IMG/VR virus record: IMGVR_UViG_3300028844_003248
Location: 1,540-65,539 of that record
Strand: one strand, 5' to 3'
DNA from: a virus
Taxonomy: Duplodnaviria > Caudoviricetes
DNA: 64,000 bases
The notes under the pieces are model-generated. The model saw only the letters and a program-made list of their open reading frames with translations, made no database searches and had not been told where the DNA came from. Of this stretch, positions 13,940-53,872 are shown piece after piece (position 1 is the first letter of the stretch; the number at the start of each line of letters is the position of its first letter). The position numbers were made by a program, and so were the translations under genes.

Positions 13940-13968
13940 ATTATATACTGATTCGCACGATTCGTCAA
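13940..13968 (-). promoter_or_regulatory. early promoter with two CGAATCR motifs
   Basis: TTGACG-17 bp-TATAAT on the minus strand. Confidence 0.75.
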
Positions 13969-14059
13969 TCCTGCAAAAAGTATCAGAAAAAAGGTGATAA
14001 CAATTTTAAACTAAATGCTAAGTGCTTGAGTTTGCTTATCTTTTTTCAAAAGTTTTCTC

Positions 14060-14088
14060 TTGACCATCTGAGCGTATAATGCTATTGT
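14060..14088 (+). promoter_or_regulatory. early promoter
   Basis: TTGACC-17 bp-TATTGT with TG extension, followed by the conserved leader TATGTAATCAAGAGAAAGAGAGAATCAC. Confidence 0.65.
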
Positions 14089-14120
14089 ATATATGTAATC
14101 AAGAGAAAGAGAGAATCACT

Positions 14121-14357
14121 ATGTTTCGCATTCCCCCCTTCAACCAGATGAATGAAATGACTTTAGAAGAAGCTAAAGGTATCATCACCAATCTCGGTGG
14201 TACCAAAACTCTTCTTGATGGTCTTGAGTACATGGACAACATGTGGAAAGAGCATTGTTTCAATGAAGATGATGACGATGATTTCTATGACACTTGGATC
14301 TATGAGGTAAATGCCTTCAATGTCGTATTCAAAAAAATGCAGCCTCTCTTTGCTTGA
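14121..14357 (+). CDS. hypothetical early protein
   Basis: ATG follows the conserved leader; acidic. Confidence 0.7.
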   Translation: MFRIPPFNQMNEMTLEEAKGIITNLGGTKTLLDGLEYMDNMWKEHCFNEDDDDDFYDTWIYEVNAFNVVFKKMQPLFA

Positions 14358-14802
14358 GTTTGAGGGATATAAACTGAGCCAAAAGCAGAAAGCCTTGATC
14401 AGCAAGGCTACTGCGATTGTGCTGTCCAATCTTGTATCGAAGCGGATGGCTGAGTCTCTGGAAATCACCATTGAGATAAACCGAAAGCTGTTCAAAGAAA
14501 CAGGCACCCTTGGTAACTGTGGTCTTGAGGATGATGCACGGTCTCCTAAGTATTTCACGATTGAACTGAACTACGGTGGAGCAAGCATGATGGATGAACT
14601 CATTCAGACACTGTGTCATGAACTGGTTCACGTTGTTCAATATGCTCAACGGCGGATGCGGTGTCTTTCTGGTTCTTATGCCGTAGCATGGGGAAAGGAT
14701 CACTACAATACGCAAGAGATTGCTTATGATGATCGGCCTTGGGAAATCGAAGCATTTGAGTTAGAAGAGATGCTATATAGTAAGGTAAAGGAAACGCTTT
14801 AA
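14311..14802 (+). CDS. putative zinc metallopeptidase (HExxH); start codon uncertain
   Basis: TLCHELVHVVQ and PWEIEA motifs. Confidence 0.75.
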   Translation: MPSMSYSKKCSLSLLEFEGYKLSQKQKALISKATAIVLSNLVSKRMAESLEITIEINRKLFKETGTLGNCGLEDDARSPKYFTIELNYGGASMMDELIQTLCHELVHVVQYAQRRMRCLSGSYAVAWGKDHYNTQEIAYDDRPWEIEAFELEEMLYSKVKETL

Positions 14803-14815
14803 CACGAGGAAACAA

Positions 14816-15046
14816 ATGCCCCAATACACAATGAGAGATATTAAAACCAAGGAAGAGTTTGAGGTAACTTGCACTTGGACAGAGATGCAAGAGTTACTTA
14901 ATGAGAACACTAATCTGGTTCAAAAACTATCCACGCCAAAGATTATCTCTGGTAGGAGTGGTGGCATGAAAGTTCCAGATGGATTTACCGATTTGAAAAA
15001 GAATATCAAAAAACACTCTGGTCGAGGCAATACGATTAAAATATGA
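14816..15046 (+). CDS. conserved small protein upstream of phoH (FmdB-like)
   Basis: MPQYTMRD..EEFE..KVPDGF pattern. Confidence 0.65.
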   Translation: MPQYTMRDIKTKEEFEVTCTWTEMQELLNENTNLVQKLSTPKIISGRSGGMKVPDGFTDLKKNIKKHSGRGNTIKI

Positions 15047-16832: not shown

Positions 16833-17640
16833 CAAACGACAAAGGATCATAGCCAAGGCAACAGTAGGCTGTGGTGATATTATGTTTGCCTATAATGTCG
16901 CCCATTTAAGATCCCATATAATAGAGAAGCCAGTGTATCTTGAGGTGCACTGGTTTTATCCAGAAGATTACTACCATCATTTTGAAGATCCAGAGACATT
17001 ACCAGAGAGAGCCGAATATCTTCTAAAGTTCTACAATAATGATACAACAGATGTCATTATAGACCACAAATTTAACTCCACGGATTGGTCTCTCTATTAT
17101 AAAAAGTTTATTGGGTTTGAAGATAAGTATGGAGAGGTTCGTAGAGGAACCAAAAGACCTAGTAATATTAAAATAAATGAGTGGCAGTTTAGAGATATAG
17201 ATATCCCTGTTGTCAATAAGAAGATCACTATATGGCATTCTGCTTTAAACAGTGAGTTACCAAGACCCTTCAAGAGAACGTTTAACTTGAAAGAATGGGA
17301 CCAAGTAAAGAAGATCTTAGAGATACAAGGTTATAGTGTTACGTTCATTGATTATAGAACACCTATTCGAGAAGTTCTTTACCATATTGCTAGTTGCGAA
17401 TGTGTGATCTGTTATGAAGGAATGTGGCACTACGTAGCCAAGAATCTAAACAAACCTATGATTGTTCTCACCAAAGATTTGATTACAGGGTTTCACACAC
17501 CTGCTGCAGTCAAATACAAGGTCAGAAAAGTCGAACAGCATCAGATCAGTTACTTTTATGATATTGATAACAAGATAATCGAAGCCAAATCCATGGCTGA
17601 AAAACAAAGAAAAAAGTTGAGTTTACTATATGAAAATTGA
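16762..17640 (+). CDS. putative GT-B glycosyltransferase (GT9/heptosyltransferase-like)
   Basis: GCGDIM near the N-terminus; C-terminal IASCECVICYEGMWHYVAKNLNKPMIVL resembles the GT9 motif. Confidence 0.55.
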   Translation: MIKLTKNPNLITNKRIRENWYPVNKRQRIIAKATVGCGDIMFAYNVAHLRSHIIEKPVYLEVHWFYPEDYYHHFEDPETLPERAEYLLKFYNNDTTDVIIDHKFNSTDWSLYYKKFIGFEDKYGEVRRGTKRPSNIKINEWQFRDIDIPVVNKKITIWHSALNSELPRPFKRTFNLKEWDQVKKILEIQGYSVTFIDYRTPIREVLYHIASCECVICYEGMWHYVAKNLNKPMIVLTKDLITGFHTPAAVKYKVRKVEQHQISYFYDIDNKIIEAKSMAEKQRKKLSLLYEN

Positions 17641-18589
17641 TAGAGCGGTAATCGAGATCAATGGTGGGTGTAACTACACTTGTCAGATGTGTCCACAAAC
17701 AAATCCAGATGGAACACACGGTGCACGTGGTAAGAACTGGCTCAAGAAAATGTCACTCACAGAGTTTGAAGATAATGTTGCTCAGTGTGCAGAAGCAGGG
17801 TTGAATGTGGTAAACTTAGATGGTTCTGGAGAGGTAACACTGAACCGTAATCTGCCAGAATACATCAAGATCGTAAAGAAGTATGGTGCCAAGGCATTCA
17901 TGTTCTCAAACGGTCTGCGTATGTCATATAACTTTATGAACGAGACTGTTGATGCTGGTTGTGATTTCTTTCGGTTTTCTATTATAGGATACAATGCTGA
18001 CCTTTATTGGAAGTGGATGAATAGCCCATACTTTGGAAAGGTGATTAAAAACCTACATGATATGCAAGAGTATGTAACCAAGACAGGATCTGATTGTGTC
18101 GTTGCTACCTATCATCTTGTTCTGGATAATGACAATATCGACTATGAGGTTGAGCAATATAAAAAGATTGTAGAAGGTGCTGGAGTCAGTACAGAGATTT
18201 GGAAAATGCACAACTGGTCTGGTGTGTATGAACCAGAGTATGCAAGGAAAGGCAAACTCAAAACTTGTGGCAGACCGTTCTCACCTGACGTAGTAATCCG
18301 AGCAGGTGGTCTCGATGGTAACAAAGGTGCTATCCATCCTTGCTGCCAAGTATTGGGTAGAGATGATGAAGCCGTTCTGGGTCATATGAGCACGAACACA
18401 CTTGAAGAGATCTGGTATGGCGAGCCTTATAACCAACTGAGAAAGCAGCACGAGATGGGAGATTTTCCAGACTTCTGTAAAGGTTGTGATTTCTTGATTG
18501 ATGATCCAGAGGTTCTTGTATACACCAATCATGATAGAAAAAACTACAAGATGCACGGTACGGAATTTGACCTCAATGACTATCGCTAA
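17630..18589 (+). CDS. radical SAM protein with SPASM/twitch domain
   Basis: CNYTCQMC; GSGE; C-terminal CGRPF..HPCC..LEEIW..CKGC. Confidence 0.9.
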   Translation: MKIDRAVIEINGGCNYTCQMCPQTNPDGTHGARGKNWLKKMSLTEFEDNVAQCAEAGLNVVNLDGSGEVTLNRNLPEYIKIVKKYGAKAFMFSNGLRMSYNFMNETVDAGCDFFRFSIIGYNADLYWKWMNSPYFGKVIKNLHDMQEYVTKTGSDCVVATYHLVLDNDNIDYEVEQYKKIVEGAGVSTEIWKMHNWSGVYEPEYARKGKLKTCGRPFSPDVVIRAGGLDGNKGAIHPCCQVLGRDDEAVLGHMSTNTLEEIWYGEPYNQLRKQHEMGDFPDFCKGCDFLIDDPEVLVYTNHDRKNYKMHGTEFDLNDYR

Positions 18590-19984: not shown

Positions 19985-20402
19985 AGGCAATATCAACGGC
20001 CCAAAGCCCAAATATGAAAACACGACAAGTTATATACTCGAAGCTATTCAAGAAGGTTACGATGTAGAGATAGACCTAAGAAGAGAAGATAATGCGTTGT
20101 GGTTGGGTCATGATGATAAATCAGAAAAGATCCGCACAAGCTTTCTGTATGACAATTTTGACAAACTTTGGATTCATTGCAAAGACATGAGTTCTCTTTC
20201 ATATCTCAACCGTTCGAGTCTCAACTACTTTTGGCATGAGAATGATGATTACACGATAACCTCACGTGGATGGATCTGGGCCTATCCTGGTAAACAAGTA
20301 GAAATACATACTGTATCAATAGCTGTTTTACCAGAGATAAATAAGACTAATGTAGACAACTTTTCAGGAGTTTGCAGTGATCAGATAGGACTTTACAAAT
20401 GA
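19965..20402 (+). CDS. glycerophosphodiester phosphodiesterase-like protein
   Basis: ISHRGN..EN, VEIDL, LGHD, WIHCK, GVCSD. Confidence 0.75.
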   Translation: MRLISHRGNINGPKPKYENTTSYILEAIQEGYDVEIDLRREDNALWLGHDDKSEKIRTSFLYDNFDKLWIHCKDMSSLSYLNRSSLNYFWHENDDYTITSRGWIWAYPGKQVEIHTVSIAVLPEINKTNVDNFSGVCSDQIGLYK

Positions 20403-21457
20403 AATATTATACTGTTATATATGAAGTAGATGGACCAGACATTCAAAAGGCTGCTTGGAATATTGCAATCGGTCAGAGTATTGGTAATCCAAACATTCGA
20501 TCTGAAATCGAAACAGCACAGAACATCAAAGATTTTGAAGCAACGATTGAATCCATCGAAGGTAATATTGTAAAGATAAACTTTCCTTTAGATGCATGGG
20601 ATTGGCCTAATCTAAATCAACTTATGTGTGTTATCCAAGGTGGTCAATCAGACATTGAGTGTGTGCACCGATGTCGAGTCATTGATATCGAAGGTTTGCC
20701 ATATATGAATGAACCAGTGCTTGGTCTCAAGAAATGGAAAGAGCGAGTCGGTGCAGAGAATCGACCTCTATTTGGTGGTATTATTAAACCAAAATCTGGA
20801 TTGACCCCAGACCAGATGATGAGTATTGTACAGCAGATGATTGATGGTGGTGCTGATTTTATCAAAGAAGATGAGATCATGGCTAATAATAGCTACTATC
20901 CATTGAGTGCTAGAGTAGATGATGTAACGAAAGCCATCAAAGATTCTGGATGGAAAGGTGTATATGCGTATTGTGTCAATGCAGATCCTTTACAGATAAT
21001 CGACAATTTGAATACGATTAAAGAACATGGCGGTGAAGCATGTCATATCAACTTCTGGTCTAGTATGGGTGCATATACAACTTCCAATAAACTAGGTGTT
21101 GTAACACATTTTCAAAGATCTGGTATTCGAACATGGACAGATCCAAACAACAGATTTTCTATTTCTTGGAACGTAATCGTAAAACTTGCTATTATGGCAG
21201 GTGTTGATTCCATGCACGTTGGTATGCTTGGTGGATACTATCCAGAAGGTGAGTCAGAAGAGGAGACGCATAAAGCAGTTTCTGATCTGATCAACACCGA
21301 CCGAGTTGCTGCCTTGAGTTGTGGCATGAACCCAGAAATTGCAAGAGAGATCCGTGGTCTGATTGGAAACGATTGGATGGCTAACATTGGTGGGTGGCTA
21401 CATACTGGAGAAACCATCTATGAAAAAGTTTACGAAATGAGAAAGAGCCTTGAATGA
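20399..21457 (+). CDS. RuBisCO-like protein (form IV-like)
   Basis: GGIIKPKSGL, GADFIKEDE, GVDSMHVG, LSCGM, NIGGWLH align to RuBisCO barrel motifs. Confidence 0.85.
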   Translation: MKYYTVIYEVDGPDIQKAAWNIAIGQSIGNPNIRSEIETAQNIKDFEATIESIEGNIVKINFPLDAWDWPNLNQLMCVIQGGQSDIECVHRCRVIDIEGLPYMNEPVLGLKKWKERVGAENRPLFGGIIKPKSGLTPDQMMSIVQQMIDGGADFIKEDEIMANNSYYPLSARVDDVTKAIKDSGWKGVYAYCVNADPLQIIDNLNTIKEHGGEACHINFWSSMGAYTTSNKLGVVTHFQRSGIRTWTDPNNRFSISWNVIVKLAIMAGVDSMHVGMLGGYYPEGESEEETHKAVSDLINTDRVAALSCGMNPEIAREIRGLIGNDWMANIGGWLHTGETIYEKVYEMRKSLE

Positions 21458-39626: not shown

Positions 39627-39655
39627 TTGACAGCGAGGCTATGATTCGCTATACT
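39627..39655 (+). promoter_or_regulatory. promoter with TGATTCG in the spacer
   Basis: TTGACA-17 bp-TATACT. Confidence 0.8.
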
Positions 39656-40969: not shown

Positions 40970-40998
40970 TTGACTACGTTGGCGAATCATGCTAATGT
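40970..40998 (+). promoter_or_regulatory. early promoter with CGAATCA, embedded in an inverted repeat
   Basis: TTGACT-17 bp-TAATGT with TG extension; conserved leader follows. Confidence 0.7.
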
Positions 40999-43946: not shown

Positions 43947-43952
43947 AAAGAG

Positions 43953-43981
43953 TTGACACCGCTTCCGAATCATGCTATAAA
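43953..43981 (+). promoter_or_regulatory. early promoter with CGAATCA
   Basis: TTGACA-17 bp-TATAAA; conserved leader follows. Confidence 0.8.
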
Positions 43982-44012
43982 GTATATGTAATCAAGAGAA
44001 AGAGAGAATCAC

Positions 44013-44426
44013 ATGGCTTATGTTTCCCAAGATCAGAAGAAAAAACTAGCACCTGGCATCAAAGCGGTGCTTGCCAAGTATGGTGTCAAAGGCACTATCG
44101 GTGTCAACCATCATTCTACTTTGGTGGTCAACATCAAAGAAGGCGTTCTTGACTTCATCGGCAATGCTAACAAGAAAAATAAAGAATATGCCGAACGTAC
44201 TGGTAGCCAGTTCTATGAGGTCAAAGACAACTACCAAGCCAATCCTTACCATGCTCAAGATGATGAGGGTGTCTTTGGTGAGTTCTTTGGTGAACTGATC
44301 GCTGCAATGAAAGGTACCGATTGGTTCGATGAGTCGGACATCATGACTGACTACTTCCACACTGCTTGGTACTTGAATATCAATGTCGGCAAATGGAACA
44401 AACCTTACAACTACACAGGAGTGTAA
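44013..44426 (+). CDS. conserved phage hypothetical early protein
   Basis: MAYVSQ..WFDESDIMTDYFHTAWY..IGKW-like motif. Confidence 0.75.
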   Translation: MAYVSQDQKKKLAPGIKAVLAKYGVKGTIGVNHHSTLVVNIKEGVLDFIGNANKKNKEYAERTGSQFYEVKDNYQANPYHAQDDEGVFGEFFGELIAAMKGTDWFDESDIMTDYFHTAWYLNINVGKWNKPYNYTGV

Positions 44427-44428
44427 TC

Positions 44429-44611
44429 ATGGAATACTTCACATTCAAAGCATACGGCAACATCTACAGCAAAAAAGGTGAGAACGGTGTTGCATGTATG
44501 GAAGATGCCAATCGTGAACTACTCTGGACGAATACAGAGACAAAGGATGGTGCTTGGTTCGAAGATGGTCCAAACGCATATCAGTGGATTGAAGGAAACT
44601 TTTTCGACTAA
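44429..44611 (+). CDS. hypothetical protein
   Basis: AGGAG RBS. Confidence 0.6.
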   Translation: MEYFTFKAYGNIYSKKGENGVACMEDANRELLWTNTETKDGAWFEDGPNAYQWIEGNFFD

Positions 44612-44616
44612 AGGGC

Positions 44617-44645
44617 TTGACACGAATCGAATCATGTGCTATACA
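44617..44645 (+). promoter_or_regulatory. early promoter with tandem CGAATCGAATCA
   Basis: TTGACA-17 bp-TATACA; identical to the copy at 44967. Confidence 0.8.
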
Positions 44646-44681
44646 GTATGTATAAGTTAGTTAAACAGAAAGAGAACCATT

Positions 44682-44957
44682 ATGTCTATTAAGAAACTTA
44701 TCGATCAAACTAACCAAGCAATTCGTAAGGTGGAACAGCATCACGCCCCGATAGATACAGAACTTGCCGATCTATATAAAGATGATCTATCTGATTTTGA
44801 ATCAGTACAACGGATGATCAATGCACACGATACTGATGGTGCATCAGTAAAGATCAACGGAATGTGGCATGAACCACGGGAACAGATCGTAATGGCTATT
44901 GCTGATGAGTATGGTAATGGATATGTAGAAACTGTACTAGGTTATGAGGTATCATAA
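44682..44957 (+). CDS. hypothetical early protein
   Basis: ORF directly downstream of the promoter. Confidence 0.7.
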   Translation: MSIKKLIDQTNQAIRKVEQHHAPIDTELADLYKDDLSDFESVQRMINAHDTDGASVKINGMWHEPREQIVMAIADEYGNGYVETVLGYEVS

Positions 44958-44966
44958 AAAAGAGGG

Positions 44967-44995
44967 TTGACACGAATCGAATCATGTGCTATACA
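44967..44995 (+). promoter_or_regulatory. early promoter with tandem CGAATCGAATCA
   Basis: Identical to the copy at 44617. Confidence 0.8.
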
Positions 44996-45027
44996 GTATA
45001 TGTAGACAGAAAAAGAAAGGTCTCACA

Positions 45028-45264
45028 ATGCAAAATCAAATCGACTATATCAATGCTCATAACGGTGGCATCCAGTGTTGTTCTGATGCTGGTGGTCTTG
45101 TTGGCTGGTCCAACACTGCCGAAGGTATCGCATATATCTTGAATACCAAGGGTATTGCGCCTGTCGTCATGGGCAGTTCGTCCATGGATTTTGCTTCTGA
45201 GTACGGTTTCGAAGATGATGAAGGTGCTCAGTGGCTGTGGAAAAAAGCTTTGGAATTGGTCTAA
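45028..45264 (+). CDS. hypothetical early protein
   Basis: MQNQIDYI..MGSSSMDFASEYGF. Confidence 0.7.
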   Translation: MQNQIDYINAHNGGIQCCSDAGGLVGWSNTAEGIAYILNTKGIAPVVMGSSSMDFASEYGFEDDEGAQWLWKKALELV

Positions 45265-45277
45265 GGAGGATCGCACT

Positions 45278-45514
45278 ATGTTTGAAGTTGGTATGGGATT
45301 TGTTCGTGTGTACGGTGATCGCACCGAGTCTGGTAAAATCGATCTGGTCATGGATGGTGAGATCGGAGTGACCTTTGACAACGGCGTCCAGAAAGTATAC
45401 ACGATGGAATGCGTCTTGAACACTCTGGGTCGCCGCATCTTGGTTACTCGTGATTGGACCGAGGAAGAACGGAAAGAACTGGAGTCAGCACGGAAAGAAC
45501 TGGAGTCAGCATAA
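45278..45514 (+). CDS. hypothetical protein
   Basis: AAGGAGG RBS. Confidence 0.7.
   Translation: MFEVGMGFVRVYGDRTESGKIDLVMDGEIGVTFDNGVQKVYTMECVLNTLGRRILVTRDWTEEERKELESARKELESA
45469..45510 (+). repeat. 21 bp tandem duplication
   Basis: ACGGAAAGAACTGGAGTCAGC x2 (RKELESA x2). Confidence 0.95.
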
Positions 45515-45744
45515 TGGACAAGAAAACATTCATGGAAGCTGTATATGGCGCTGTCGGTACTGAGGTATCTGGCTGGTGCCGTGGTACTGAGTTTCTTGGT
45601 GAAATCATCGATACTCGTGTGAAGTACGGTGAAGGTGAGGTACAAGTGACCGTTAAAGACGGTGACGAATATCATTTCATTGATGCATCGTCTATCCTTG
45701 AGGGTGGCGATTCAACCTTTTCTAACTTGCATATATACTTGTAG
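45514..45744 (+). CDS. hypothetical protein
   Basis: TAATG coupling. Confidence 0.65.
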   Translation: MDKKTFMEAVYGAVGTEVSGWCRGTEFLGEIIDTRVKYGEGEVQVTVKDGDEYHFIDASSILEGGDSTFSNLHIYL

Positions 45745-45752
45745 TCTTTAAA

Positions 45753-45829
45753 GGTCTCTTGGCTCAACTGGAGAGAGCAACGGCCTTCTAAGCCGTAGGT
45801 TGCAGGTTCGAGTCCTGCAGAGACCGCCA
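45753..45829 (+). tRNA. tRNA-Arg(TCT)
   Basis: GGTCTCT/AGAGACC acceptor stem, ACGGC-CTTCTAA-GCCGT, TTCGAGT, CCA. Confidence 0.95.
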
Positions 45830-45836
45830 AAACACA

Positions 45837-45913
45837 GCGCCTTTAGCTTAGTTGGTTAAAGCTATCCGCTCATAACGGATTGATCGTAGGTTCGAGTCCT
45901 ACAGGGCGCACCA
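45837..45913 (+). tRNA. tRNA with CAT anticodon, probably Ile2 (lysidine); elongator Met not excluded
   Basis: GCGCCTT/AGGGCGC, ATCCG-CTCATAA-CGGAT, CCA; paired G1-C72, so not an initiator. Confidence 0.9.
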
Positions 45914-45917
45914 AAGG

Positions 45918-46003
45918 GTGAGCATGGCGGAATAGGTAGACGCAACGGACTTAAAATTCGTTATCTTTATGGTGTGTGGGTTCGAGTCCCTCTGCTCACA
46001 CCA
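45918..46003 (+). tRNA. tRNA-Leu(TAA)
   Basis: GTGAGCA/TGCTCAC, long variable arm, CTTAAAA loop, CCA. Confidence 0.92.
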
Positions 46004-46009
46004 AATAAT

Positions 46010-46085
46010 GCACTCATGGCTCAAATGGTAGAGCAACTGATTTGTAATCAGTAGGTTGTAGGTTCGAGTCCTACTGAGTGCACCA
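46010..46085 (+). tRNA. tRNA-Thr(TGT)
   Basis: GCACTCA/TGAGTGC, ACTGA-TTTGTAA-TCAGT, CCA. Confidence 0.95.
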
Positions 46086-46105
46086 ATATAAAAAGGAGAA
46101 TATTT

Positions 46106-46483
46106 ATGGACCCATTTTTTGGATTCCTAATGATTGTGAGTGCACTTGTCACCTTTGATAAGGTGGAGACACTCAAAACAGAAAACGCAGTATTAGAAGA
46201 AAAAGTTGAAACACTCAAGTATGCTACAGAAGAACTCTACACAAGGCATGAGAATGTAGCAGAATATGTTGATGAGCAGTCAATCAAACAAGAAGAAGAT
46301 TTTATTCGGCTTGCGGCATCTCATGCTGCTGCGACTGCTCGTAGAAAACATGATATTGATGAAAATACATCCGATATTGGACAGATTGATATTGCTGTTG
46401 AATTGCTTGAACTTGAAGTAGAATATTTAATGGAAATGCTAAAAACTCAACAGCAGTCACAGCCAGAGCCAATTGATAAGTAA
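46106..46483 (+). CDS. membrane-anchored coiled-coil protein
   Basis: Hydrophobic N-terminus; AAGGAG RBS. Confidence 0.7.
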   Translation: MDPFFGFLMIVSALVTFDKVETLKTENAVLEEKVETLKYATEELYTRHENVAEYVDEQSIKQEEDFIRLAASHAAATARRKHDIDENTSDIGQIDIAVELLELEVEYLMEMLKTQQQSQPEPIDK

Positions 46484-47130
46484 TGCTACGCTATCAGAAA
46501 CTGGATTTGTTTCCTCAAGGTAAGTTTGATGAACTGGTCAAGGTTTACCACCACACGGTACCAGATCCTAATACCTTTGTAGATAACATGAAGAGCCATA
46601 GTTATCAATGGCCTCGTACAGGCATCAAGGTAGCACAGACTGAGTTTGATCTTGGACCACAGTTTCAGCCAACAGCATTCTTTATGATGAGCAAGCCATT
46701 TGGTCAGATGTCTCATATACATTTGGACCCGACATTGCAGTTCACTTTGAATATTCCGATAGCGGCACATCCATCAAAGGGTGCATATCTGGCACCTCGG
46801 TTTGACAGTCTTGATAACTATCCCAAACCATATCATATTAAGAGTCCTAGAATCGATGATCCTACATACAAGGGACCAAAGCAATGGGATGTTTGGGATT
46901 ATGATGCTAACCTTTTTGAGTATGTCAAGATGGATAGTCCGATACTCATCAACAACTGGTTACCCCATGCTTGGATGAACTACCACAGTGAGTGGCGAGT
47001 CGTCTGTAGCATATTTTTTAAAACAACCAACATCAACGAAGCACAGGAGATAGTAAGCAAATGGCAAAGTGGTCAACAGGTCAGACATCAACATGGGGAG
47101 AAGATCCCAGAAAGAAAGAAAGCGCAATGA
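46483..47130 (+). CDS. cupin/2OG-Fe(II) oxygenase-like protein
   Basis: HLD...PHAW; paralog of 10865-11449. Confidence 0.55.
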   Translation: MLRYQKLDLFPQGKFDELVKVYHHTVPDPNTFVDNMKSHSYQWPRTGIKVAQTEFDLGPQFQPTAFFMMSKPFGQMSHIHLDPTLQFTLNIPIAAHPSKGAYLAPRFDSLDNYPKPYHIKSPRIDDPTYKGPKQWDVWDYDANLFEYVKMDSPILINNWLPHAWMNYHSEWRVVCSIFFKTTNINEAQEIVSKWQSGQQVRHQHGEKIPERKKAQ

Positions 47131-47333
47131 AAGAACAACTGATCAAAGCATCATACATGCATGCAGAAGGTGATCTAGAACGTGCCAAGACAAACATCAT
47201 GGTCTATATGAATCAGTCAGTAGGCATTGGTGAGCACTCTGATGTAGTCGAGGCTATTCAAGAAGAACTGGATAAGATGGCTGCGGCACAAGATCGTATC
47301 GAAATGCTAGAACGCTACTTCATGGACAAATGA
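47127..47333 (+). CDS. conserved phage hypothetical protein
   Basis: VGIGEHSDVVEAIQEEL motif; alternative start at 47061. Confidence 0.7.
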   Translation: MKEQLIKASYMHAEGDLERAKTNIMVYMNQSVGIGEHSDVVEAIQEELDKMAAAQDRIEMLERYFMDK

Positions 47334-47806
47334 AAAAAGTAGCTATCACTGGACATCTAAATGGTCTTGGTAAAGCGTTGTTTCAGCGTTTGCCAAATGC
47401 TATTGGTTTTGACATTGTTGGTGGCTGGGATAGTTACGATATTACAAAAGACTACAATCGAATAGCCCAAAAAGCCCACGACTGTGATGTGTTTATTAAT
47501 AACGCATACGATGGTCGTGGGCAAATTCTTATGCATCACGCCATTGAAGAACAATACCAACATACCGATAAACTGATCATCAATATATCTTCACTCACGA
47601 CTGATCTATATCCAGATCGCAATGACGAGTATGCCCAAGTAAAGCGAGAGTTAGAAAAGATAAGTAGACATGCAAGGTGTCCATGTGAATGCATTCAAGT
47701 ACCTCTCATGAACACTCAACTCGCAAACGGAAAGAAGCATGCTAAAACTTACAAGATTAATGCTGACATTGTAGCAAAGGCAATCATTGAATGGCATATC
47801 TCCTAG
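47330..47806 (+). CDS. short SDR-like oxidoreductase
   Basis: ITGHLNGLG, VFINNA, IINISS, YAQVK. Confidence 0.75.
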   Translation: MKKVAITGHLNGLGKALFQRLPNAIGFDIVGGWDSYDITKDYNRIAQKAHDCDVFINNAYDGRGQILMHHAIEEQYQHTDKLIINISSLTTDLYPDRNDEYAQVKRELEKISRHARCPCECIQVPLMNTQLANGKKHAKTYKINADIVAKAIIEWHIS

Positions 47807-48429
47807 TCTCATTTGCATGGTGGATATTTCTATCCTCGGCAATCGTATCGGCAGGGTACCATCGGTACTTTGCCCATCGTGCTTTTAAGGCACCTATTTG
47901 GTATGAGTATATGGTCTTATTGCTTGGACCGCTTTCTGGTTCTGGTCCAGCACTTGGTTGGGTCGGTGTTCATAGACTGCACCACAACCACTCTGACACA
48001 GAACAAGATCCACACTCACCTAAATTTGTTCCAAAATGGAAGGTACTCACATCTATGTTTGATGTACCACCAATACCAAGAAAAGCAGTGAAGGATCTAC
48101 TGAGAAACAAAAGAGTGGTTTGGTTCTATAAGAAACACAAGCCAATACGTCTTCTCGTTTTCATTTTATTTCTTTTAATCACTGGTCCGATCTGGACCTT
48201 TTGGTTATTCATCATGCCTATGGTGTATGGTTATGTTGGTTATGGTTTACTTAATACATATTGTCATAGCAAGGAAACTGTAAGAAACTTGTGGTGGGCA
48301 AACATACTTACTGGTGGAGAGGGTTGGCATGCAAATCACCATGAAAATCCAAGAGACTGGAAAATAGGCAAAGAATGGTATGAATGGGATTGGGGAGCAT
48401 GGTGGATACGTTTGATCAAAAAATCTTGA
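47791..48429 (+). CDS. membrane fatty acid desaturase (delta-9-like)
   Basis: His boxes HRYFAH, HRLHH, HANHH; DPHSP; GEGWH. Confidence 0.9.
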   Translation: MAYLLVSFAWWIFLSSAIVSAGYHRYFAHRAFKAPIWYEYMVLLLGPLSGSGPALGWVGVHRLHHNHSDTEQDPHSPKFVPKWKVLTSMFDVPPIPRKAVKDLLRNKRVVWFYKKHKPIRLLVFILFLLITGPIWTFWLFIMPMVYGYVGYGLLNTYCHSKETVRNLWWANILTGGEGWHANHHENPRDWKIGKEWYEWDWGAWWIRLIKKS

Positions 48430-48986
48430 CTCTTGAAGAATATGGTACACTTAGTTTTGAAAAAGAGTTGAAAAGACTCGGTGCCGAAGCTAATGTGTAT
48501 GATAAGAAAAATTCAGAGTGGTTTGATATATTACCAACCACCTACAAAAAATACATTGATTGGTTCTTCTTGTTTGATGGAGACAATCCTGTAGCGTTCT
48601 CTACCGTACAAAAGTATTACAGTGGCTGCTATAGGGTACTGACACGCACCTACATCTATCGAGACTATCGACGGTTCACTAACCCAAAGCTGGACACGTA
48701 CCTTAGTCCTACCATGAGACTACTGCCATATCAGCTAGAGTATCTGACAGGCTACGACACAGTGTTCGTTTCGATGCAAGGAACCAACAGACGAAACGCC
48801 CTCAAAAGATTTCAAAACAAAATAGAGCACCACACCAGAGACAAATGGCATCTATCGAGCCGTATGCTACAGACCTGCGGTGGTGGTGCAGACTGCTGGC
48901 AGAATGTGATATATAAAGGTATGCCACCACAACTTAACGATATGAGTATAGAAGAATATGACCGAATGTTTAATCGCACAGACTAA
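48399..48986 (+). CDS. hypothetical protein (possible GNAT-like fold)
   Basis: ORF in the operon; RVLTRTYIYRDYR. Confidence 0.55.
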   Translation: MVDTFDQKILTLEEYGTLSFEKELKRLGAEANVYDKKNSEWFDILPTTYKKYIDWFFLFDGDNPVAFSTVQKYYSGCYRVLTRTYIYRDYRRFTNPKLDTYLSPTMRLLPYQLEYLTGYDTVFVSMQGTNRRNALKRFQNKIEHHTRDKWHLSSRMLQTCGGGADCWQNVIYKGMPPQLNDMSIEEYDRMFNRTD

Positions 48987-49605
48987 GAGAAAAAGGGTCG
49001 GGGGTACTGGTCCACGACGCAACAAACTGCTTACTATGTGTAAGCTGGGAGACGCTCCGACACGAGTTGTGGACGAACTGAACTACATCCTTGACACTCA
49101 TAGTGGTAATGACATAGGGGGAGATGACTACGGGATCTCTCAGAACTGCGACTATGAGGAAGTATTCAACGTACAAGACAAGTATAGACAAGTACTACTA
49201 CAGAAGAAGGCGCTGGGCAACAGTGATGATGTAGACGAATACTTGTATACAGAGTGGGACGGTAACTATGTGGTACGGTATACACATCCGTATATACAGA
49301 CGTTATTTAATAATGTTTATCGGTTTCGCTTGAGCGAAATGCAAGGGGATCACGAGTTAAACTGGCACATCGATGCCGATACAAGTGTGATTTGTAGAGC
49401 ACAGATATGCTTGACTGATAGCGAATCGCTGCTGGAGTTTCGTGATAAGAGTGGTGTACACAAGCTACAGATGAAGAAAGGGGAGGTGTGGTTCATCAAT
49501 ACAGGGTGGAATCATAGGGTCGTCAATGGCAGCAATCTGAGACGAAGTGCCATATTGGGGTTTCATTATGAGGATCTCAAGAACAAGAGTTTGATCGATG
49601 TCTGA
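48958..49605 (+). CDS. 2OG-Fe(II) oxygenase (Asp/Asn beta-hydroxylase-like)
   Basis: RFRLS..WHID..GEVWFINTGWNHRVVN..R. Confidence 0.75.
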   Translation: MTECLIAQTKRKRVGGTGPRRNKLLTMCKLGDAPTRVVDELNYILDTHSGNDIGGDDYGISQNCDYEEVFNVQDKYRQVLLQKKALGNSDDVDEYLYTEWDGNYVVRYTHPYIQTLFNNVYRFRLSEMQGDHELNWHIDADTSVICRAQICLTDSESLLEFRDKSGVHKLQMKKGEVWFINTGWNHRVVNGSNLRRSAILGFHYEDLKNKSLIDV

Positions 49606-50203
49606 GGCGTTCATGATAAACTTGCTTGATCGAGTCGCCACGTATGCATGGGCAGGTCGTGTAGACAATTTAGAGTGCTTTCGTAAGGGGCAGATCCAGA
49701 GCAAGAAATGGCTGGTATACGAGATCACCAAGTTTCAAAAACATTTTAAAAGAGTAGCGGTATTGGGTAGTTGGGATGCTATCCTTCTCTATGAACTGAT
49801 GAATAAGGACGCCACGGTCGAGCATTGGGACTTCTATGATATCGATGGGGGATGCCACAAGAGACGTGATATATATTTTGATGTGAACGGAATGGCACCT
49901 AACTATACCTCTATTCACGAGGACGTAGAGACGTTGTTTGATTCTCCTAGTATTTGTTCACAGTATGACCTCATTATCAATCCATCGTGTGAGCATATGA
50001 AAGATATCCCTGCATGCGCTGGGCCTCTGTATGCACTGACTTCGAACAACTATGACAAGCTAGAAGAGCATATAAACACCATTCAAGACTACCGTGATTT
50101 GGCTATAAAGAATCATATAAATAAAGTACTATATGAAGGTGAGTTAAGACTGCCTTTATACACAAGATATTGCACAGTAGGATACCACGAAGATGACAGA
50201 TGA
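49598..50203 (+). CDS. SAM-dependent methyltransferase-like protein
   Basis: QIQSKKWL, VLGSW, YDID, INPSCEHM, SNNY. Confidence 0.65.
   Translation: MSEAFMINLLDRVATYAWAGRVDNLECFRKGQIQSKKWLVYEITKFQKHFKRVAVLGSWDAILLYELMNKDATVEHWDFYDIDGGCHKRRDIYFDVNGMAPNYTSIHEDVETLFDSPSICSQYDLIINPSCEHMKDIPACAGPLYALTSNNYDKLEEHINTIQDYRDLAIKNHINKVLYEGELRLPLYTRYCTVGYHEDDR
50116..50123 (+). promoter_or_regulatory. T4-type late promoter
   Basis: TATAAATA 70 nt upstream of the ORF at 50193. Confidence 0.5.
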
Positions 50204-50456
50204 TATATTCGATTTTGGCTTTACAGCCGTCACAGAAGATGAACTCACTACTGTACAAGAAGCAAATAAAACTGCAATAGCACTTAGTGAACAGACTGAT
50301 AATAAACAGAACCAACTGGATTCCCTCTATAATGCTATTATGCCCCTTCTGAATAACCTCAAAATGAATCCAGAAAAAGACTATATTCTATGGCCCAATC
50401 GTTTGGCAAAGGTAGAAGAGTTTGAAGATCATTTACAGAAGATATACAAAGGATGA
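50193..50456 (+). CDS. conserved T4-like hypothetical protein
   Basis: DFGFTAVTEDEL..PLLNNLK.NPEKDYI.WPNR. Confidence 0.75.
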   Translation: MTDDIFDFGFTAVTEDELTTVQEANKTAIALSEQTDNKQNQLDSLYNAIMPLLNNLKMNPEKDYILWPNRLAKVEEFEDHLQKIYKG

Positions 50457-50462
50457 ATAGTT

Positions 50463-50726
50463 ATGGTAAATACAATGTGGTCGGCATTGCTGCTTATATG
50501 CGCAATCGATTCCGATGGTGAATTCAAAGAAGAACGTCAGTGTACAGCAATTGTGAGCCAGCAGGTCTGGCGTAATGAAGAATCTTGTATGAATGGTATT
50601 GCTCAAGGGTTTAACTCTCAGTTACAAATGCCAACTTCAAGAGCGTTCTCTATACGAGATTTTGCTTGCTTTGAATGGGAACGGCAGAGGCATGTAACTC
50701 CTGACGGTGATGATTCCAAGCTATAG
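50463..50726 (+). CDS. small secreted/membrane Cys-containing protein
   Basis: MWSALLLICA signal-like segment; 4 Cys. Confidence 0.65.
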   Translation: MVNTMWSALLLICAIDSDGEFKEERQCTAIVSQQVWRNEESCMNGIAQGFNSQLQMPTSRAFSIRDFACFEWERQRHVTPDGDDSKL

Positions 50727-50757
50727 TGTTCCCCCCTGTTCTGAAGGCTGACACCTT

Positions 50758-50786
50758 ATTATACACTGATTCGGCAACATTGTCAA
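50758..50786 (-). promoter_or_regulatory. minus-strand promoter with CGAATCA; no obvious ORF downstream
   Basis: TTGACA-17 bp-TATAAT. Confidence 0.8.
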
Positions 50787-50799
50787 GCAATCTTTTTAT

Positions 50800-50828
50800 T
50801 TGACAGAGTGCGAATCATATGCTATAGT
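50800..50828 (+). promoter_or_regulatory. early promoter with CGAATCA
   Basis: TTGACA-17 bp-TATAGT. Confidence 0.8.
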
Positions 50829-50860
50829 ACTGAAAGAAATGATCAGTTAAGGAGAATCAT

Positions 50861-50986
50861 ATGACTGACTTCGAATGGGAAGTGATCGAAGATATGTACA
50901 CTTGGGCAGATGCCACAAACTTCGATATTGAAGCGGATCGGAAAATGATGATCGATGCGTATTGGAAAGATTACTTTTGGGCTTGA
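50861..50986 (+). CDS. small acidic hypothetical protein
   Basis: AAGGAG RBS; MTDFEWEVIEDMY... (41 aa). Confidence 0.65.
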   Translation: MTDFEWEVIEDMYTWADATNFDIEADRKMMIDAYWKDYFWA

Positions 50987-51011
50987 CACCCTAAGCGAAT
51001 CAGTGTATAAT
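50983..51011 (+). promoter_or_regulatory. early promoter with CGAATCA
   Basis: TTGACA-17 bp-TATAAT. Confidence 0.85.
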
Positions 51012-51038
51012 AATAGCGAATCATGAGAAAGGAATCAC

Positions 51039-51329
51039 ATGCTCACTGAAACTCAAATGGCTGACCGTCTTGCGATGATCAAAGAAGGTGCTGAGAAGCA
51101 TAATCGTCAGAGTGTTTTGAAGGCAAGTCTTGCAAAGAAAGCATCTGCTGTAAAGGGCTGGATGGATGAGGTTGAGAAACCTGCCAAAGCGCCTACTCAG
51201 AACCTTACTGAGAAGTACGATGGTTACAATGAGAACCATTATACGGATGCTTCAAAGTATGCCAAAGAGCACTATGGTGAACGCTATAATCAGACCACTC
51301 GGTTTGATAATGATTGGGGAGATTACTAA
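51039..51329 (+). CDS. hypothetical early protein
   Basis: AAGGA RBS. Confidence 0.7.
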   Translation: MLTETQMADRLAMIKEGAEKHNRQSVLKASLAKKASAVKGWMDEVEKPAKAPTQNLTEKYDGYNENHYTDASKYAKEHYGERYNQTTRFDNDWGDY

Positions 51330-51535
51330 TGTCTGATACCTATTTCGGTAAAGGGTCATCGGATACTGCACAGCTTGAAATGCGGATTCACCGCTCGAAT
51401 GACAAGATCAGTGATCTTAAACATCAGCTTAAAGAAGTACGAAAAGATGTACTCAAGCTGAATAAAAAGGTAAATGACTTGTTGGTAACATTAACCGATG
51501 AAACCTTGGTAACATTAACCGATGAAACCGAATGA
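51329..51535 (+). CDS. coiled-coil hypothetical protein
   Basis: TAATG coupling. Confidence 0.6.
   Translation: MSDTYFGKGSSDTAQLEMRIHRSNDKISDLKHQLKEVRKDVLKLNKKVNDLLVTLTDETLVTLTDETE
51482..51529 (+). repeat. 24 bp tandem duplication
   Basis: TTGGTAACATTAACCGATGAAACC x2. Confidence 0.95.
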
Positions 51536-51695
51536 ATCGTTCAAATTAACTGTCGATGATATTGACCTTATTGAGCATGCTCTCAGAAAGGCGATGATTG
51601 ACAATGAGGAGCAAGCGAGTCTTATTGTGGACTTGCTTGCTCGTATTCACCACCAGAAGAACTGGTACAGACCTAAAGAATATATCGGAGGATAA
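51522..51695 (+). CDS. small hypothetical protein
   Basis: MKPNESFKLTVDDIDLIEHAL..HHQKNWYRPK (57 aa). Confidence 0.6.
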   Translation: MKPNESFKLTVDDIDLIEHALRKAMIDNEEQASLIVDLLARIHHQKNWYRPKEYIGG

Positions 51696-51699
51696 CTAT

Positions 51700-51966
51700 A
51701 TGATGACACGTAATGAAATGATGGAAATGCTTCAAGCAAGCACTTGCCAGGTTGATTTCACAAAAGTAAATGGAGACACACGCAACATGACGTGCACACT
51801 TCGTGAGGATATCATTCCAGCACCAACTAAATCAGAACCCATTACACAGAAGGCAGTACGTGCGGTAAATGAAGAAGTGATTCCAGTATGGGACGTAAAA
51901 GCCGAAGGATGGCGCTCTTTTCGTGTGAACTCTGTTACTGGGTTTAATGCGGTATCGGGCGCATGA
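51700..51966 (+). CDS. WYL-like/SH3-fold protein conserved in T4-like phages
   Basis: VDFTKVNGDTRNMTCTL..VWDV...GWRSFR. Confidence 0.8.
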   Translation: MMTRNEMMEMLQASTCQVDFTKVNGDTRNMTCTLREDIIPAPTKSEPITQKAVRAVNEEVIPVWDVKAEGWRSFRVNSVTGFNAVSGA

Positions 51967-52217
51967 TCATGGATTGGTTTCTAGTCGCATATACAGTCGG
52001 CATTTTTGGATGCGCTTTTATGATGGGTAGAAACACCATTAACTTTTCAAAACAGTTAGAGGATTCGGTTGAGGTTACAATCGATCTTCTAGCCTCGAAG
52101 GGTTATCTACGTAAACGATATGAAGACGGTGAATGGCATCTAGTCGAACTCAAAGAAGTTTATAAAGAAGGATATGATGCTGCTACAAAAGGGAGTTGTC
52201 GTGAAAAACTACGTTAA
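51963..52217 (+). CDS. membrane protein, hypothetical
   Basis: N-terminal TM segment. Confidence 0.6.
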   Translation: MIMDWFLVAYTVGIFGCAFMMGRNTINFSKQLEDSVEVTIDLLASKGYLRKRYEDGEWHLVELKEVYKEGYDAATKGSCREKLR

Positions 52218-52485
52218 AGAGCATTTCGAAAAACACCCTAGGGCGGATAGTGAACCAAGGCCCGCAATAGTTTGTGCAGATGGTACTAGGTATTCTGTGC
52301 AAGCGTCTCGGGGCCACTATTGTACACCTAGGGAGGACAACGCCCCCGAATATTCCAGTGTTGAAGTATTTGGACCATTTACTGTTGAGCCCGAAGGTTG
52401 GGTGTCTGTTAGACTCGTCAACCAAAGAATCAAAAGACACGGGGGGTTGACATATAACGCAGGAAATGCTAGAATCGAATCATAA
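52201..52485 (+). CDS. conserved phage hypothetical protein
   Basis: CADG..SVQAS..HYCTPR..SVEV motif; GTG start after GGGAG. Confidence 0.7.
   Translation: MKNYVKEHFEKHPRADSEPRPAIVCADGTRYSVQASRGHYCTPREDNAPEYSSVEVFGPFTVEPEGWVSVRLVNQRIKRHGGLTYNAGNARIES
52447..52475 (+). promoter_or_regulatory. sigma70-like promoter
   Basis: TTGACA-17 bp-TAGAAT; CGAATCA immediately downstream. Confidence 0.75.
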
Positions 52486-52496
52486 CTTGAGGAGAA

Positions 52497-53618
52497 ATGC
52501 ACATGGCATTACGTCGTAAGAAAAAAGTTCCTGTAGTACGTCGCACTGGTTTAGCCGCAGCACCAACGGATTCGTATCGTTGGTTTGCGTCTTATGTTCG
52601 ACTTGAAGTAGATAAGAAAGATATCGCTGGTATCCTTCGTAACTACATTCGTAATAACTTTGATGGTGAGTTACGCAAGTTTCTTTTGAGTGGTCCTGAT
52701 TGGATCTATACCAGCAAGTATGATACCGCTGCTATGATTGAGTGGGTCATTAATCGTGGTAATAAAGAACCGAAAGGCTACTCAGTCGAAGAGGTTACAA
52801 AACGCTATGTCTCTGAAGTCAGTGATTGGTGTAAGAGGAAACTCGAAGAGCGTAGTGCTTCTGAAGAGGTAGAGGAGAAACCAAAGGTTCCTCAGTTGAC
52901 TCCTCTCGAACGTACTCAGCGTGTTGGTCGTCATCTGATTGCTGACATCGAAGGTATGATCGATACGTGGGAGAAGCATCGAGACGCTAACATCTATGAC
53001 AAGCTTGTGAGTGAACAAGTCTCATTGGTCGGTGCTCAGATGGTGATGAAATATTACCAGCCTCTGAAGGTGGAACTCGAAGAGTTGGTGAATACCAAGA
53101 CACCTGATCTGGTGGAAGGCTATAAGAATATGACCGTGAAGCAACAGAAAGGGTTGCTCGAATGGATCACTATGGTGATTGAAGATACCGAGAAGTATAT
53201 TCTTTCCAAGAAAGCAACTCGTGCTGTTCGTAAGCCTCGTGTGAAATCTGCAGATAAACAAGTAGTGAAATTGAACTATCTGAAGGCTTCGAAAGAATAC
53301 AAACTCAACTCAATCAATCCTATGTCGATTGTGGGAGCGATGCGCTTGTATGTATTCAATGCAAAGTACAAGACCATCACTGAGTACGTATCAAACAGTC
53401 GTAAAGGCTTTGAGGTGAAAGGATCAACCCTGCAGAAGGTGGATCTTGGACAGTCTCGAATGACTACACTGCGTAAGCCAGAAACAAGTCTGAGTGTATT
53501 CCAAAAGAAAACGATCAATCAGATCAACAAGCATTGGAGTTCGCTCACTACTAAAACCAAAGTGCCAACGGCACGTATTAATAAGGAGACAATACTCTTG
53601 AGGGTCAGCGATAAATGA
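52497..53618 (+). CDS. conserved T4-like hypothetical protein
   Basis: 373 aa; SINPMSIVGA..VKGSTL..TLRKP..RINKETILL. Confidence 0.7.
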   Translation: MHMALRRKKKVPVVRRTGLAAAPTDSYRWFASYVRLEVDKKDIAGILRNYIRNNFDGELRKFLLSGPDWIYTSKYDTAAMIEWVINRGNKEPKGYSVEEVTKRYVSEVSDWCKRKLEERSASEEVEEKPKVPQLTPLERTQRVGRHLIADIEGMIDTWEKHRDANIYDKLVSEQVSLVGAQMVMKYYQPLKVELEELVNTKTPDLVEGYKNMTVKQQKGLLEWITMVIEDTEKYILSKKATRAVRKPRVKSADKQVVKLNYLKASKEYKLNSINPMSIVGAMRLYVFNAKYKTITEYVSNSRKGFEVKGSTLQKVDLGQSRMTTLRKPETSLSVFQKKTINQINKHWSSLTTKTKVPTARINKETILLRVSDK

Positions 53619-53839
53619 CAGAATTTTTAACAAAAGCAGTTTTTACCAGCATGGTTGAGAAAGCCGTGCTGGACACGAAGATGTCCTACATGGATGCCAT
53701 CTTATCTATTTGTGATAAGAATGATATCGATCCAGAGGGTGTAAGAAAGTTTATTTCGGCCCCGATCCGAAGTAAAATCGAAGCAGAAGCAAAACGATTA
53801 AACCTTCTACCAAAAGAAAGTGAGTTGGAGTTCGAATAA
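53615..53839 (+). CDS. gp33: late transcription coactivator
   Basis: SYMDAI..C....ID.E...K.IS..I..KIEAEA..LNLL; adjacent to gp32. Confidence 0.85.
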   Translation: MTEFLTKAVFTSMVEKAVLDTKMSYMDAILSICDKNDIDPEGVRKFISAPIRSKIEAEAKRLNLLPKESELEFE

Positions 53840-53843
53840 AGTA

Positions 53844-53872
53844 TGGACGAATCAAATATACTATGTTATACT
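53844..53872 (+). promoter_or_regulatory. gp32 promoter with CGAATCA
   Basis: TGGACG-17 bp-TATACT with TG extension. Confidence 0.65.

Follow-up and report, generated by a model that had tools for sequence, protein, structure and literature searches.

A candidate GcrA-type box in the early promoters of an uncultured marine T4-like phage

The viral contig IMGVR_UViG_3300028844_003248 of IMG/VR is 65.5 kb long, with a completeness that CheckV puts at about 32%, and the 64 kb of it analyzed here (positions 1,540 to 65,539 of the record; hereafter the window) belong to an uncultured marine T4-like phage. Its genes include those of gp32, the gp45 sliding clamp, RNase H, a primase-like protein and a class II ribonucleotide reductase, together with a cluster of four transfer RNA (tRNA) genes (Table 1). 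To judge from gp32 and RNase H, the closest cultured relatives are Kyanoviridae-type phages with 42-58% protein identity, and the marine metagenomes of several studies hold DNA that is nearly identical to that of the window phage. Thirteen sigma70-type promoters of the window, among them those of the primase-like, gp45 and gp32 genes, carry the seven-base word CGAATCR (R being A or G), which contains a GANTC site. An original prediction, made from the sequence alone, held that this word is a site for the sigma70 cofactor GcrA, read on methylated DNA in place of a MotA box. Here, we describe the enrichment of the word, its constrained geometry and orientation, its agreement with published GcrA sites and its lineage-specific presence on otherwise conserved promoters, and we suggest that it may be a GcrA-type box exploited through the RNA polymerase of the host.

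All 12 of the promoters that had been predicted to hold the word in or near their spacers were recovered in place, as was a further one at 52447 where, just as had been noted, a copy (CGAATCA, 52476-52482) comes directly after the -10 hexamer; the presence of two copies in some promoters is likewise confirmed for those at 13968, 44617, 44967 and 50983. In all 13 promoters (named here by the coordinate of their -35 end) hexamers resembling TTGACA and TATAAT are separated by 17 bp, and the -35 hexamer is intact in 11. Each of the 17 copies that they contain is either CGAATCA, the complement of TGATTCG, or CGAATCG, that of CGATTCG. The three replication genes that the original prediction had named also stand, with a primase-like PHROG match for the first, a gp45-slide_C Pfam match for the second and gp32 as the third.

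The window has 31 copies of CGAATCR, against 11.56 ± 3.38 expected from 100 dinucleotide shuffles, none of which reached 31. Inspection of all 31 contexts placed 17 copies within the 13 promoters, the remaining 14 being dispersed through coding DNA in approximately the number expected by chance; 22 of the 31 have the form CGAATCA. With a crude mask of the open reading frames (ORFs), the density of the word is 2.46/kb in noncoding DNA (5,288 bases) and 0.31/kb in coding DNA (58,712 bases), so that the enrichment over coding DNA on which the prediction depended is indeed present. In a k-mer test that presupposed no motif, no 7-mer showed a stronger enrichment in noncoding DNA than CGAATCA (7 noncoding versus 5 coding occurrences on the plus strand, p = 1.4e-5) and no 6-mer a stronger one than GAATCA (p = 9.6e-7), and both outranked TATAAT. 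The total number of GANTC sites in the window is depleted (204 versus 271.5 ± 15.6 in the shuffles).

Table 1. Box-bearing promoters and landmark genes of the window; box positions are those of the GANTC centre relative to the predicted start of transcription
Feature	Position	Strand	-35, spacer, -10	Boxes (approximate position)	Downstream gene or remark
Promoter 13968	13940-13968	-	TTGACG-N17-TATAAT	CGAATCG 13958-13964 (overlaps -35, -28); CGAATCA 13949-13955 (-19)	minus-strand ORF 13466-13906
Promoter 32642	32642-32670	+	TTGACA-N17-TATAAT	CGAATCG 32653-32659 (-21)	66-aa ORF 32696-32896, then primase-like gene
Promoter 38883	38883-38911	+	TTTACA-N17-TATAAT	CGAATCG 38897-38903 (-18)	gp45
Promoter 39627	39627-39655	+	TTGACA-N17-TATACT	TGATTCG 39642-39648 (-17), sole reversed box	406-aa protein with ParB-like N-terminus, 39741-40961
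Promoter 40970	40970-40998	+	TTGACT-N17-TAATGT (weak -10)	CGAATCA 40983-40989 (-19)	small ORFs, first start 41030
Promoter 43953	43953-43981	+	TTGACA-N17-TATAAA	CGAATCA 43966-43972 (-19); AGAATCA (+21)	ORF 44013-44426
Promoter 44617	44617-44645	+	TTGACA-N17-TATACA	overlapping tandem CGAATCG 44623-44629 (-26) and CGAATCA 44628-44634 (-21)	ORF 44682-44957
Promoter 44967	44967-44995	+	near-identical copy of promoter 44617	44973-44979; 44978-44984	ORF 45028-45264
Promoter 50786	50758-50786	-	TTGACA-N17-TATAAT	CGAATCA 50767-50773 (-19)	no ORF behind
Promoter 50800	50800-50828	+	TTGACA-N17-TATAGT	CGAATCA 50811-50817 (-21); AGAATCA (+22)	divergent from promoter 50786
Promoter 50983	50983-51023	+	TTGACA-N17-TATAAT	CGAATCA 50996-51002 (-19); CGAATCA 51017-51023 (+3)	ORF 51039-51329
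Promoter 52447	52447-52482	+	TTGACA-N17-TAGAAT	spacer without box; AGAATCG and CGAATCA (52476-52482) directly after -10	373-aa gene 52497-53618
gp32 promoter	53844-53872	+	TGGACG-N17-TATACT	CGAATCA 53848-53854 (overlaps degenerate -35, -28)	gp32
Class II ribonucleotide reductase	8469-10691
RNase H	11916-12776
Primase-like protein	32906-33844	+			primase-like PHROG match
gp45 sliding clamp	38942-39622	+			gp45-slide_C Pfam match
tRNA cluster, four genes	45753-46085				Arg-TCT, Met-CAT, Leu-TAA, Thr-TGT
gp32	53910-54794	+

A second set of promoters was assembled blind to the word, the criteria being a -35 hexamer with at most one mismatch, a spacer of 16-18 nt and a TAnnnn hexamer with at most two mismatches, followed by a Shine-Dalgarno sequence and an ORF of at least 40 codons that begins with ATG. 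This yielded 16 promoters, nine of which have CGAATCR between the two hexamers (the chance of the 7-mer in a random 29-nt window is 0.0063, giving a binomial tail of 1.7e-16) and one more of which has it directly after the -10. Three of the promoters in Table 1 fall outside this strict set: 40970 on account of its weak -10, the minus-strand promoter at 50758-50786 for want of a downstream ORF and 53844 on account of its weak -35. Within the promoter zones (-35 to +30 of the 16 promoters, 1,072 nt) GANTC sites number 19.6/kb, versus 2.9/kb elsewhere, and the flanks differ as well, since the broad GcrA consensus YGAKTCK or its complement fits 19 of the 21 zone sites but only 66 of the 183 others (Fisher p = 1.5e-6); 18 of those 19 share one orientation. 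GANTC sites also occur between +1 and +30 in 6 of the 16 promoters (0.079 expected per promoter, tail 0.001), where most of them, and all those at +21 to +23, read GAGAATCA(C/T)ATG.

The placement of the box is not haphazard. In 11 promoters a GANTC centre lies at -17, -18, -19 or -21; for the motif-blind set the centres are -17, -18, -19 (three times) and -21 (four times), plus -26 (twice) and -28, and for the three promoters outside it they are -19, -19 and -28. Four promoters have a box at -26 or -28: in 13968, 44617 and 44967 it is a second one that touches or overlaps the -35, and the gp32 promoter has no other. Copies at -3 or +3 occur in two promoters. Where the original prediction had both offset and orientation varying, we find that the non-template strand bears CGAATCR in all promoters but one (12 of 13), 39627 being reversed, and that the offsets fall into the classes -17 to -21, -26/-28 and -3/+3. 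On both sides of the box, up to the flanking -35 and -10 hexamers, the bases vary among the promoters while the box is constant; therefore the box itself is the conserved part.

The word and its positions can be compared with what has been published for GcrA. The MEME consensus of GcrA-bound sites is TGATTCG, or more broadly YGAKTCK, and in the promoters reported as directly regulated the sites are narrowly distributed around -20 and from +2 to +30 (Haakonsen 2015, PMC4647560). The DNA-binding domain of GcrA was crystallized on methylated TGATTCG, with contacts to all seven bases (Wu 2018, PMC5887438). Upstream GcrA boxes are described at -20 ± 1 and -30 ± 2, GcrA is shown to act as a monomer, with RNA polymerase on the other face of the spacer, and the template of the PcsM cryo-electron microscopy structure has Gm6AATC at -22 to -18 (Wu 2023, PMC9976885). 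Read on the opposite strand, CGAATCA is exactly TGATTCG, the top GcrA site. The boxes of the window agree with GcrA sites in their flanks and middle base, in lying near -20, near -30 or between +2 and +30, and in their sigma70 frame with a spacer of about 17 bp, with centres at -17, -18 and -26 falling just outside the published ranges. The promoters had been chosen without any use of this agreement, be it in word, place, single asymmetric site or sigma70 frame.

Related contigs make it possible to follow individual promoters with and without the box. In three of them (L001-L003), whose gp32 is 89-95% identical to that of the window, the boxes are kept, as they are in L332; another contig, L004, is syntenic with window positions 47043-63799 at about 70-78% DNA identity, and L334 and L337 encode reductases that are 97% and 91% identical to that of the window. 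These last three contigs retain the homologous -35 and -10 hexamers with no GANTC there. Thus the homologue of promoter 13968 has both boxes in L332 and none in L334 and L337, and that of 50983 retains both GANTC sites in L003, while L004 has a different promoter without GANTC. The homologue of 52447 has an additional CGAATCA in its spacer in L001 and neither box in L004. At the gp32 promoter CGAATCA is retained in L001-L003, and the -35 of the box-bearing genomes is TGGACG or TATACG, versus a good TTTACA (TTTACA AAACA...) in the box-less L004; a box accompanied by a degraded -35 is what would be expected of an activator-dependent promoter. The pattern TTGAC-N6-9-CGAATCR has 11 matches in the contig of the window and none in the whole contigs of five relatives, four of which mainly cover the part of the genome where the window has few boxes. 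Since relatives keep the same promoters without it, the box is a lineage-specific addition, and the comparison indicates that it has been gained or lost at several promoters in parallel, layered upon promoters that are themselves conserved.

A further comparison sets L004:3990-4060 beside window positions 44617-44645: the window family reads TTGACA CGAATCGAATCATGTGC TATACA and L004 reads TTTACA AATCAATCATGC TATGAT. The L004 spacer AATCAATCATGC resembles that of the window family with the G of each GANTC gone and, read in this way, might record the loss of boxes.

An exact scan of IMG/VR with TTGACA-N5-8-CGAATCA-N2-5-TATAAT found the forward box in at least 119 stretches, versus 29 for a composition-matched control word (a complete scan); the reversed box was found in at least 120 stretches, dominated by one repeated promoter. 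When near-identical spacers are collapsed there remain at least 35 forward and at least 33 reverse clusters, versus 21 for the control. The offsets of the 57 distinct spacers among the matches listed are concentrated in N7-box-N3 (20) and N5-box-N5 (12), which are the two main geometries of the window, whereas the control is flat at 3-4. Among the 104 box loci in the matches listed, 65 encode T4-like relatives of window proteins (for example, RNase H with 39-56% identity), and one further box-bearing group has 74% DNA identity to the cultured Roseobacter phage CRP-1. When four other box contigs were surveyed blind to the motif, 2 of 15, 3 of 5, 5 of 14 and 2 of 10 promoters had the box at -17 to -23, the corresponding figure for the window being 9 of 14.

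Two AT-rich T4-like IMG/VR contigs, G008 and G012 (L418-L425, L434-L435), have GANTC at about -4, just after the -10, in four and five promoters, respectively, and several of their promoters have TGATTCG at +13 to +22 beside the start codon. These sites may represent a further placement class of the same word.

On balance, we consider it somewhat probable that the CGAATCR boxes are of the GcrA type and that a host RNA polymerase carrying GcrA reads them on phage DNA that is methylated. The host would then be an alphaproteobacterium in which GcrA is a stably bound cofactor of RNA polymerase-sigma70, and the GANTC adenines would be N6-methylated either by the CcrM of the host or by a phage enzyme encoded outside the fragment. 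The DNA-binding domain of GcrA would dock on the methylated box, within the spacer (about -20) or at the edge of the -35 (about -28), opposite RNA polymerase, and the docked GcrA would raise both polymerase binding and open-complex formation. In this manner the host polymerase could fire the small early genes and the replication genes (primase-like, gp45, gp32) without a phage activator. The class of the host, the methylation, the binding of GcrA and its effect on transcription or timing are what we infer from the boxes; that early infection might in addition be coupled to the host cell cycle, as the original prediction proposed, is pure conjecture. The GcrA/CcrM interpretation itself draws support from the word, its position and its flanks, but it receives none from the gene content of the contig or from the cultured phages of Alphaproteobacteria.

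A number of results weigh against this interpretation. The promoters are near consensus and might need no activator, and close relatives manage without the box. All the positions given above assume that transcription starts 7 nt beyond the -10, as predicted, and could be off by 1-2 nt; the sites at +21 to +23 may be part of the ribosome-binding and translation start region because all of them share the sequence that ends in the start codon. The closest cultured relatives infect cyanobacteria, SAR11 and Methylophilales, and the KdsA homologue is about 46-53% identical to proteins of many phyla among the matches listed. Alphaproteobacterial LexA boxes occur in the window at chance (2 versus 1.9), and full CtrA boxes (TTAA-N7-TTAA) are absent from it. 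Neither GcrA (PF07750) nor an N6_N4 methylase (PF01555) has a match in the contig, which is about a third of a genome, so the prediction finds no gcrA or ccrM homologue there; in 32 other box-bearing viral records GcrA is found in none and an N6_N4 methylase in four.

The cultured phages point in the same direction. Strict and relaxed patterns found the box architecture in none of 17, of which 14 come from alphaproteobacterial hosts (HTVC008M, RHph_I1_18, Cr30, CRP-1, CRP-804, CRP-4, ICBM3, HMO-2011, SIO1, RcapNL, RDJL Phi 1, RcTitan, DSS3phi2 and RC1). These 14 include the T4-like Caulobacter phage Cr30, Rhizobium phage RHph_I1_18 and Pelagibacter phage HTVC008M, and in Cr30 the 44 copies of CGAATCR (versus 3 of the reversed control) have a coding context. 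In 301 sampled alphaproteobacterial genomes the strict AT-rich form has 18 matches versus 9 for the reversed control, too few to use. A published scan of phages of Alphaproteobacteria with a GcrA matrix gave no positional signal in those that it analyzed (Mascolo et al. 2022, PMC9437464).

The RuBisCO-like protein of the window gave no useful host taxa, and the methylases of two box-bearing contigs, compared with solved structures, fit CcrM no better than other beta-class enzymes. MotA (PF09114) and AsiA (PF09010) have no match in this fragment of the genome, a weak negative given that neither family was matched in any control genome. RHph_I1_18 has 98 copies of CGAATCR versus 17 of the control, and HTVC008M (KC465899.1) has none in 147 kb, versus 3 of the reversed control word.

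The main rival to a GcrA reading is that the box is recognized by a different trans-acting protein, either an early DNA-binding protein of the phage that occupies the spacer and shuts off or boosts these promoters or, in a host outside the Alphaproteobacteria, some host factor that is not GcrA; the resemblance to the GcrA site would then be coincidental. We regard this as unlikely. Cultured phages of alphaproteobacterial hosts lack the architecture and nothing in the window assigns its host to the Alphaproteobacteria, and a lineage-specific box is what one would expect if a lineage-specific phage gene reads it; candidates exist, since small ORFs without a known function are numerous in the contig and a ParB-like protein is encoded right behind one box promoter. 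However, a conserved 7-mer would equal the top GcrA word in either orientation by chance about once in 8,000 cases, positions aside, and early promoters must work before any phage protein exists. The inside of the spacer is a classic place for a repressor; yet the site is a single short asymmetric word, neither palindrome nor direct repeat, and as such it suits a protein that reads DNA as a monomer, as GcrA does, more than a repressor that binds as a dimer. The same word and offsets recur, moreover, in contigs of varied size, with 39 of the 104 loci among the matches listed encoding no T4-like relative of the window proteins and one box group being akin to a Roseobacter podovirus, and such recurrence across unlike contigs fits a shared host factor better than the protein of one phage.

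Next in strength is the proposal that the word acts in cis only, as a spacer that tunes polymerase contact or DNA shape or as the core of a recombining promoter cassette, with neither reader nor methylation, and this we judge very unlikely. In T4-type phages cassettes are reportedly shuffled at early promoters; 44617 and 44967 are almost the same promoter twice, placed around a small cassette that is missing from other contigs, and the 13968 and 50786 promoters have leaders in common. Often TGC or GTG comes between the box and the -10, an arrangement near that of an extended -10. However, the bases on either side of the box differ among most promoters, which therefore do not represent a single cassette copied repeatedly. 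An element of DNA shape tied to the polymerase would have one place and not several (N5, N7, N8, -35 overlap and after the -10). The homologous promoters of the relatives work with unrelated spacers, and GcrA flanks are far commoner at promoter-zone GANTC than elsewhere. The last and weakest alternative, extremely improbable in our view, is that a HinfI-type host restriction-modification system has purged GANTC and left the promoter copies as an irremovable remainder: GANTC is depleted in the window as given above (observed/expected 0.83 by a Markov estimate), but this depletion is mild and is not shared by the relatives compared (ratios 0.80 to 1.29), and promoter GANTC, 6.7-fold denser than elsewhere, with specific flanks and missing from the homologous promoters of relatives, must therefore have been added or kept by selection.

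Should GcrA be the reader, the boxes might also make early transcription dependent on methylation and so provide a built-in timer and gate, an extension that seems to us distinctly unlikely. The infecting genome, fully methylated, would be read by the host GcrA-RNA polymerase and the new unmethylated copies would be read poorly, so that early promoters would silence themselves during replication with no need for a phage repressor, and infection would start efficiently only at a stage of the host cell cycle at which GcrA is present. If this were the case, gain or loss of the box between relatives of about 75-80% DNA identity would mark host shifts.

Between promoters 44617 and 44967 lies a cassette of about 350 bp that contains ORF 44682-44957. 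Contigs from four RNA-library runs cover parts of 43901-53900 (they show neither starts nor strand nor level, and DNA was possibly present), and contigs of three runs join 44649 to 45010, skipping 360 bases; therefore related genomes without the cassette exist. The arrangement suggests gain or loss of the cassette by recombination between the promoter copies. On the minus strand, 13880-13968 and 50700-50786 are alike in promoter and leader (...CAGCCTT.AG.ACAGGGGGGAACAC...), the second having no ORF, and 50758-50786 seems to be what is left of a duplicate of a small cassette that faces backward. The 146-aa product of ORF 13466-13906, behind the first, has no PHROG match.

Between 14000 and 38900 the window contains a long biosynthetic island (for example, 17630-18589, 20399-21457, 27557-29500, 29500-32183 and 33844-38879). 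It encodes a RuBisCO-like protein (20399-21457), two radical-SAM enzymes, one of them B12-binding, an aminotransferase-like protein and a NodU-type carbamoyltransferase, together with KdsA- and KdsB-like enzymes, a phosphomannomutase, a NAD-dependent epimerase/dehydratase and a UDP-glucose dehydrogenase-like protein. The RuBisCO-like protein is unusual for a phage, and its Atlas viral cluster comprises 158 such proteins. The 406-aa protein behind the reversed-box promoter has a ParB/sulfiredoxin-like N-terminal segment with weak PHROG matches; it was considered as a hidden methylase and rejected, there being no DPPY-type motif by eye and no Pfam hit. Three of the four tRNAs read codons ending in A, which would suit a host of higher G+C than this phage of 40% G+C, a weak hint at most.

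If the boxes are indeed read by GcrA, several consequences follow. The literature searched contains no description of GcrA boxes in phage promoters, and within it this would be the first case found of a virus that uses a host methylation reader as an early activator. It would explain an organization of transcription beyond plain sigma70 promoters in marine T4-like phages without MotA and AsiA, and it would tie the success of infection to the cell-cycle or methylation state of the host in a testable fashion. The box would also be a marker, readable from sequence alone, that places many uncultured marine T4-like phages with alphaproteobacterial hosts. The pairs of homologous promoters with and without the box in close relatives are natural, ready-made constructs for a test.

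Among known systems the closest are the GcrA/CcrM promoters of Caulobacter crescentus (PcsM, mipZ and ctrA P1), which have the same word, positions, sigma70 frame and single asymmetric site as those of the window (PMC4647560, PMC5887438, PMC9976885), and GAATC at -22 to -18 of PcsM has the same reading as the non-template strand of the window promoters (PMC9976885). The promoters of the window differ in that they lie on a lytic T4-like phage, are AT-rich and close to the E. coli-type consensus, and have a GcrA dependence that is putative; a box is present in a very high fraction of them (9 of 16), and twice in some. In the middle promoters of T4 a MotA box at about -30 replaces the -35, and the phage itself encodes both MotA, which reads this box, and AsiA, which remodels sigma. 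These promoters and those of the window are both of T4-type phages, have an extra element near or instead of the -35 of a sigma70 promoter and drive replication genes; however, most of the window promoters have an intact -35 and hold the box within the spacer, and a protein of the host is proposed to read it. The CtrA boxes described in alphaproteobacterial phages resemble the boxes of the window as sites for a host cell-cycle regulator in phage promoters, but the regulator is CtrA and the site is the TTAA-N7-TTAA that the window lacks in full form (PMC9437464). Finally, phiCbK-like Caulobacter phages encode a GcrA homologue, with no promoter boxes described in the part of the report available (Gill et al. 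2012, PMC3556154). Those phages carry the gene of the regulator, whereas the window fragment, where no regulator gene was found, carries the candidate boxes, and by these different means both would tie a phage to the GcrA circuit.

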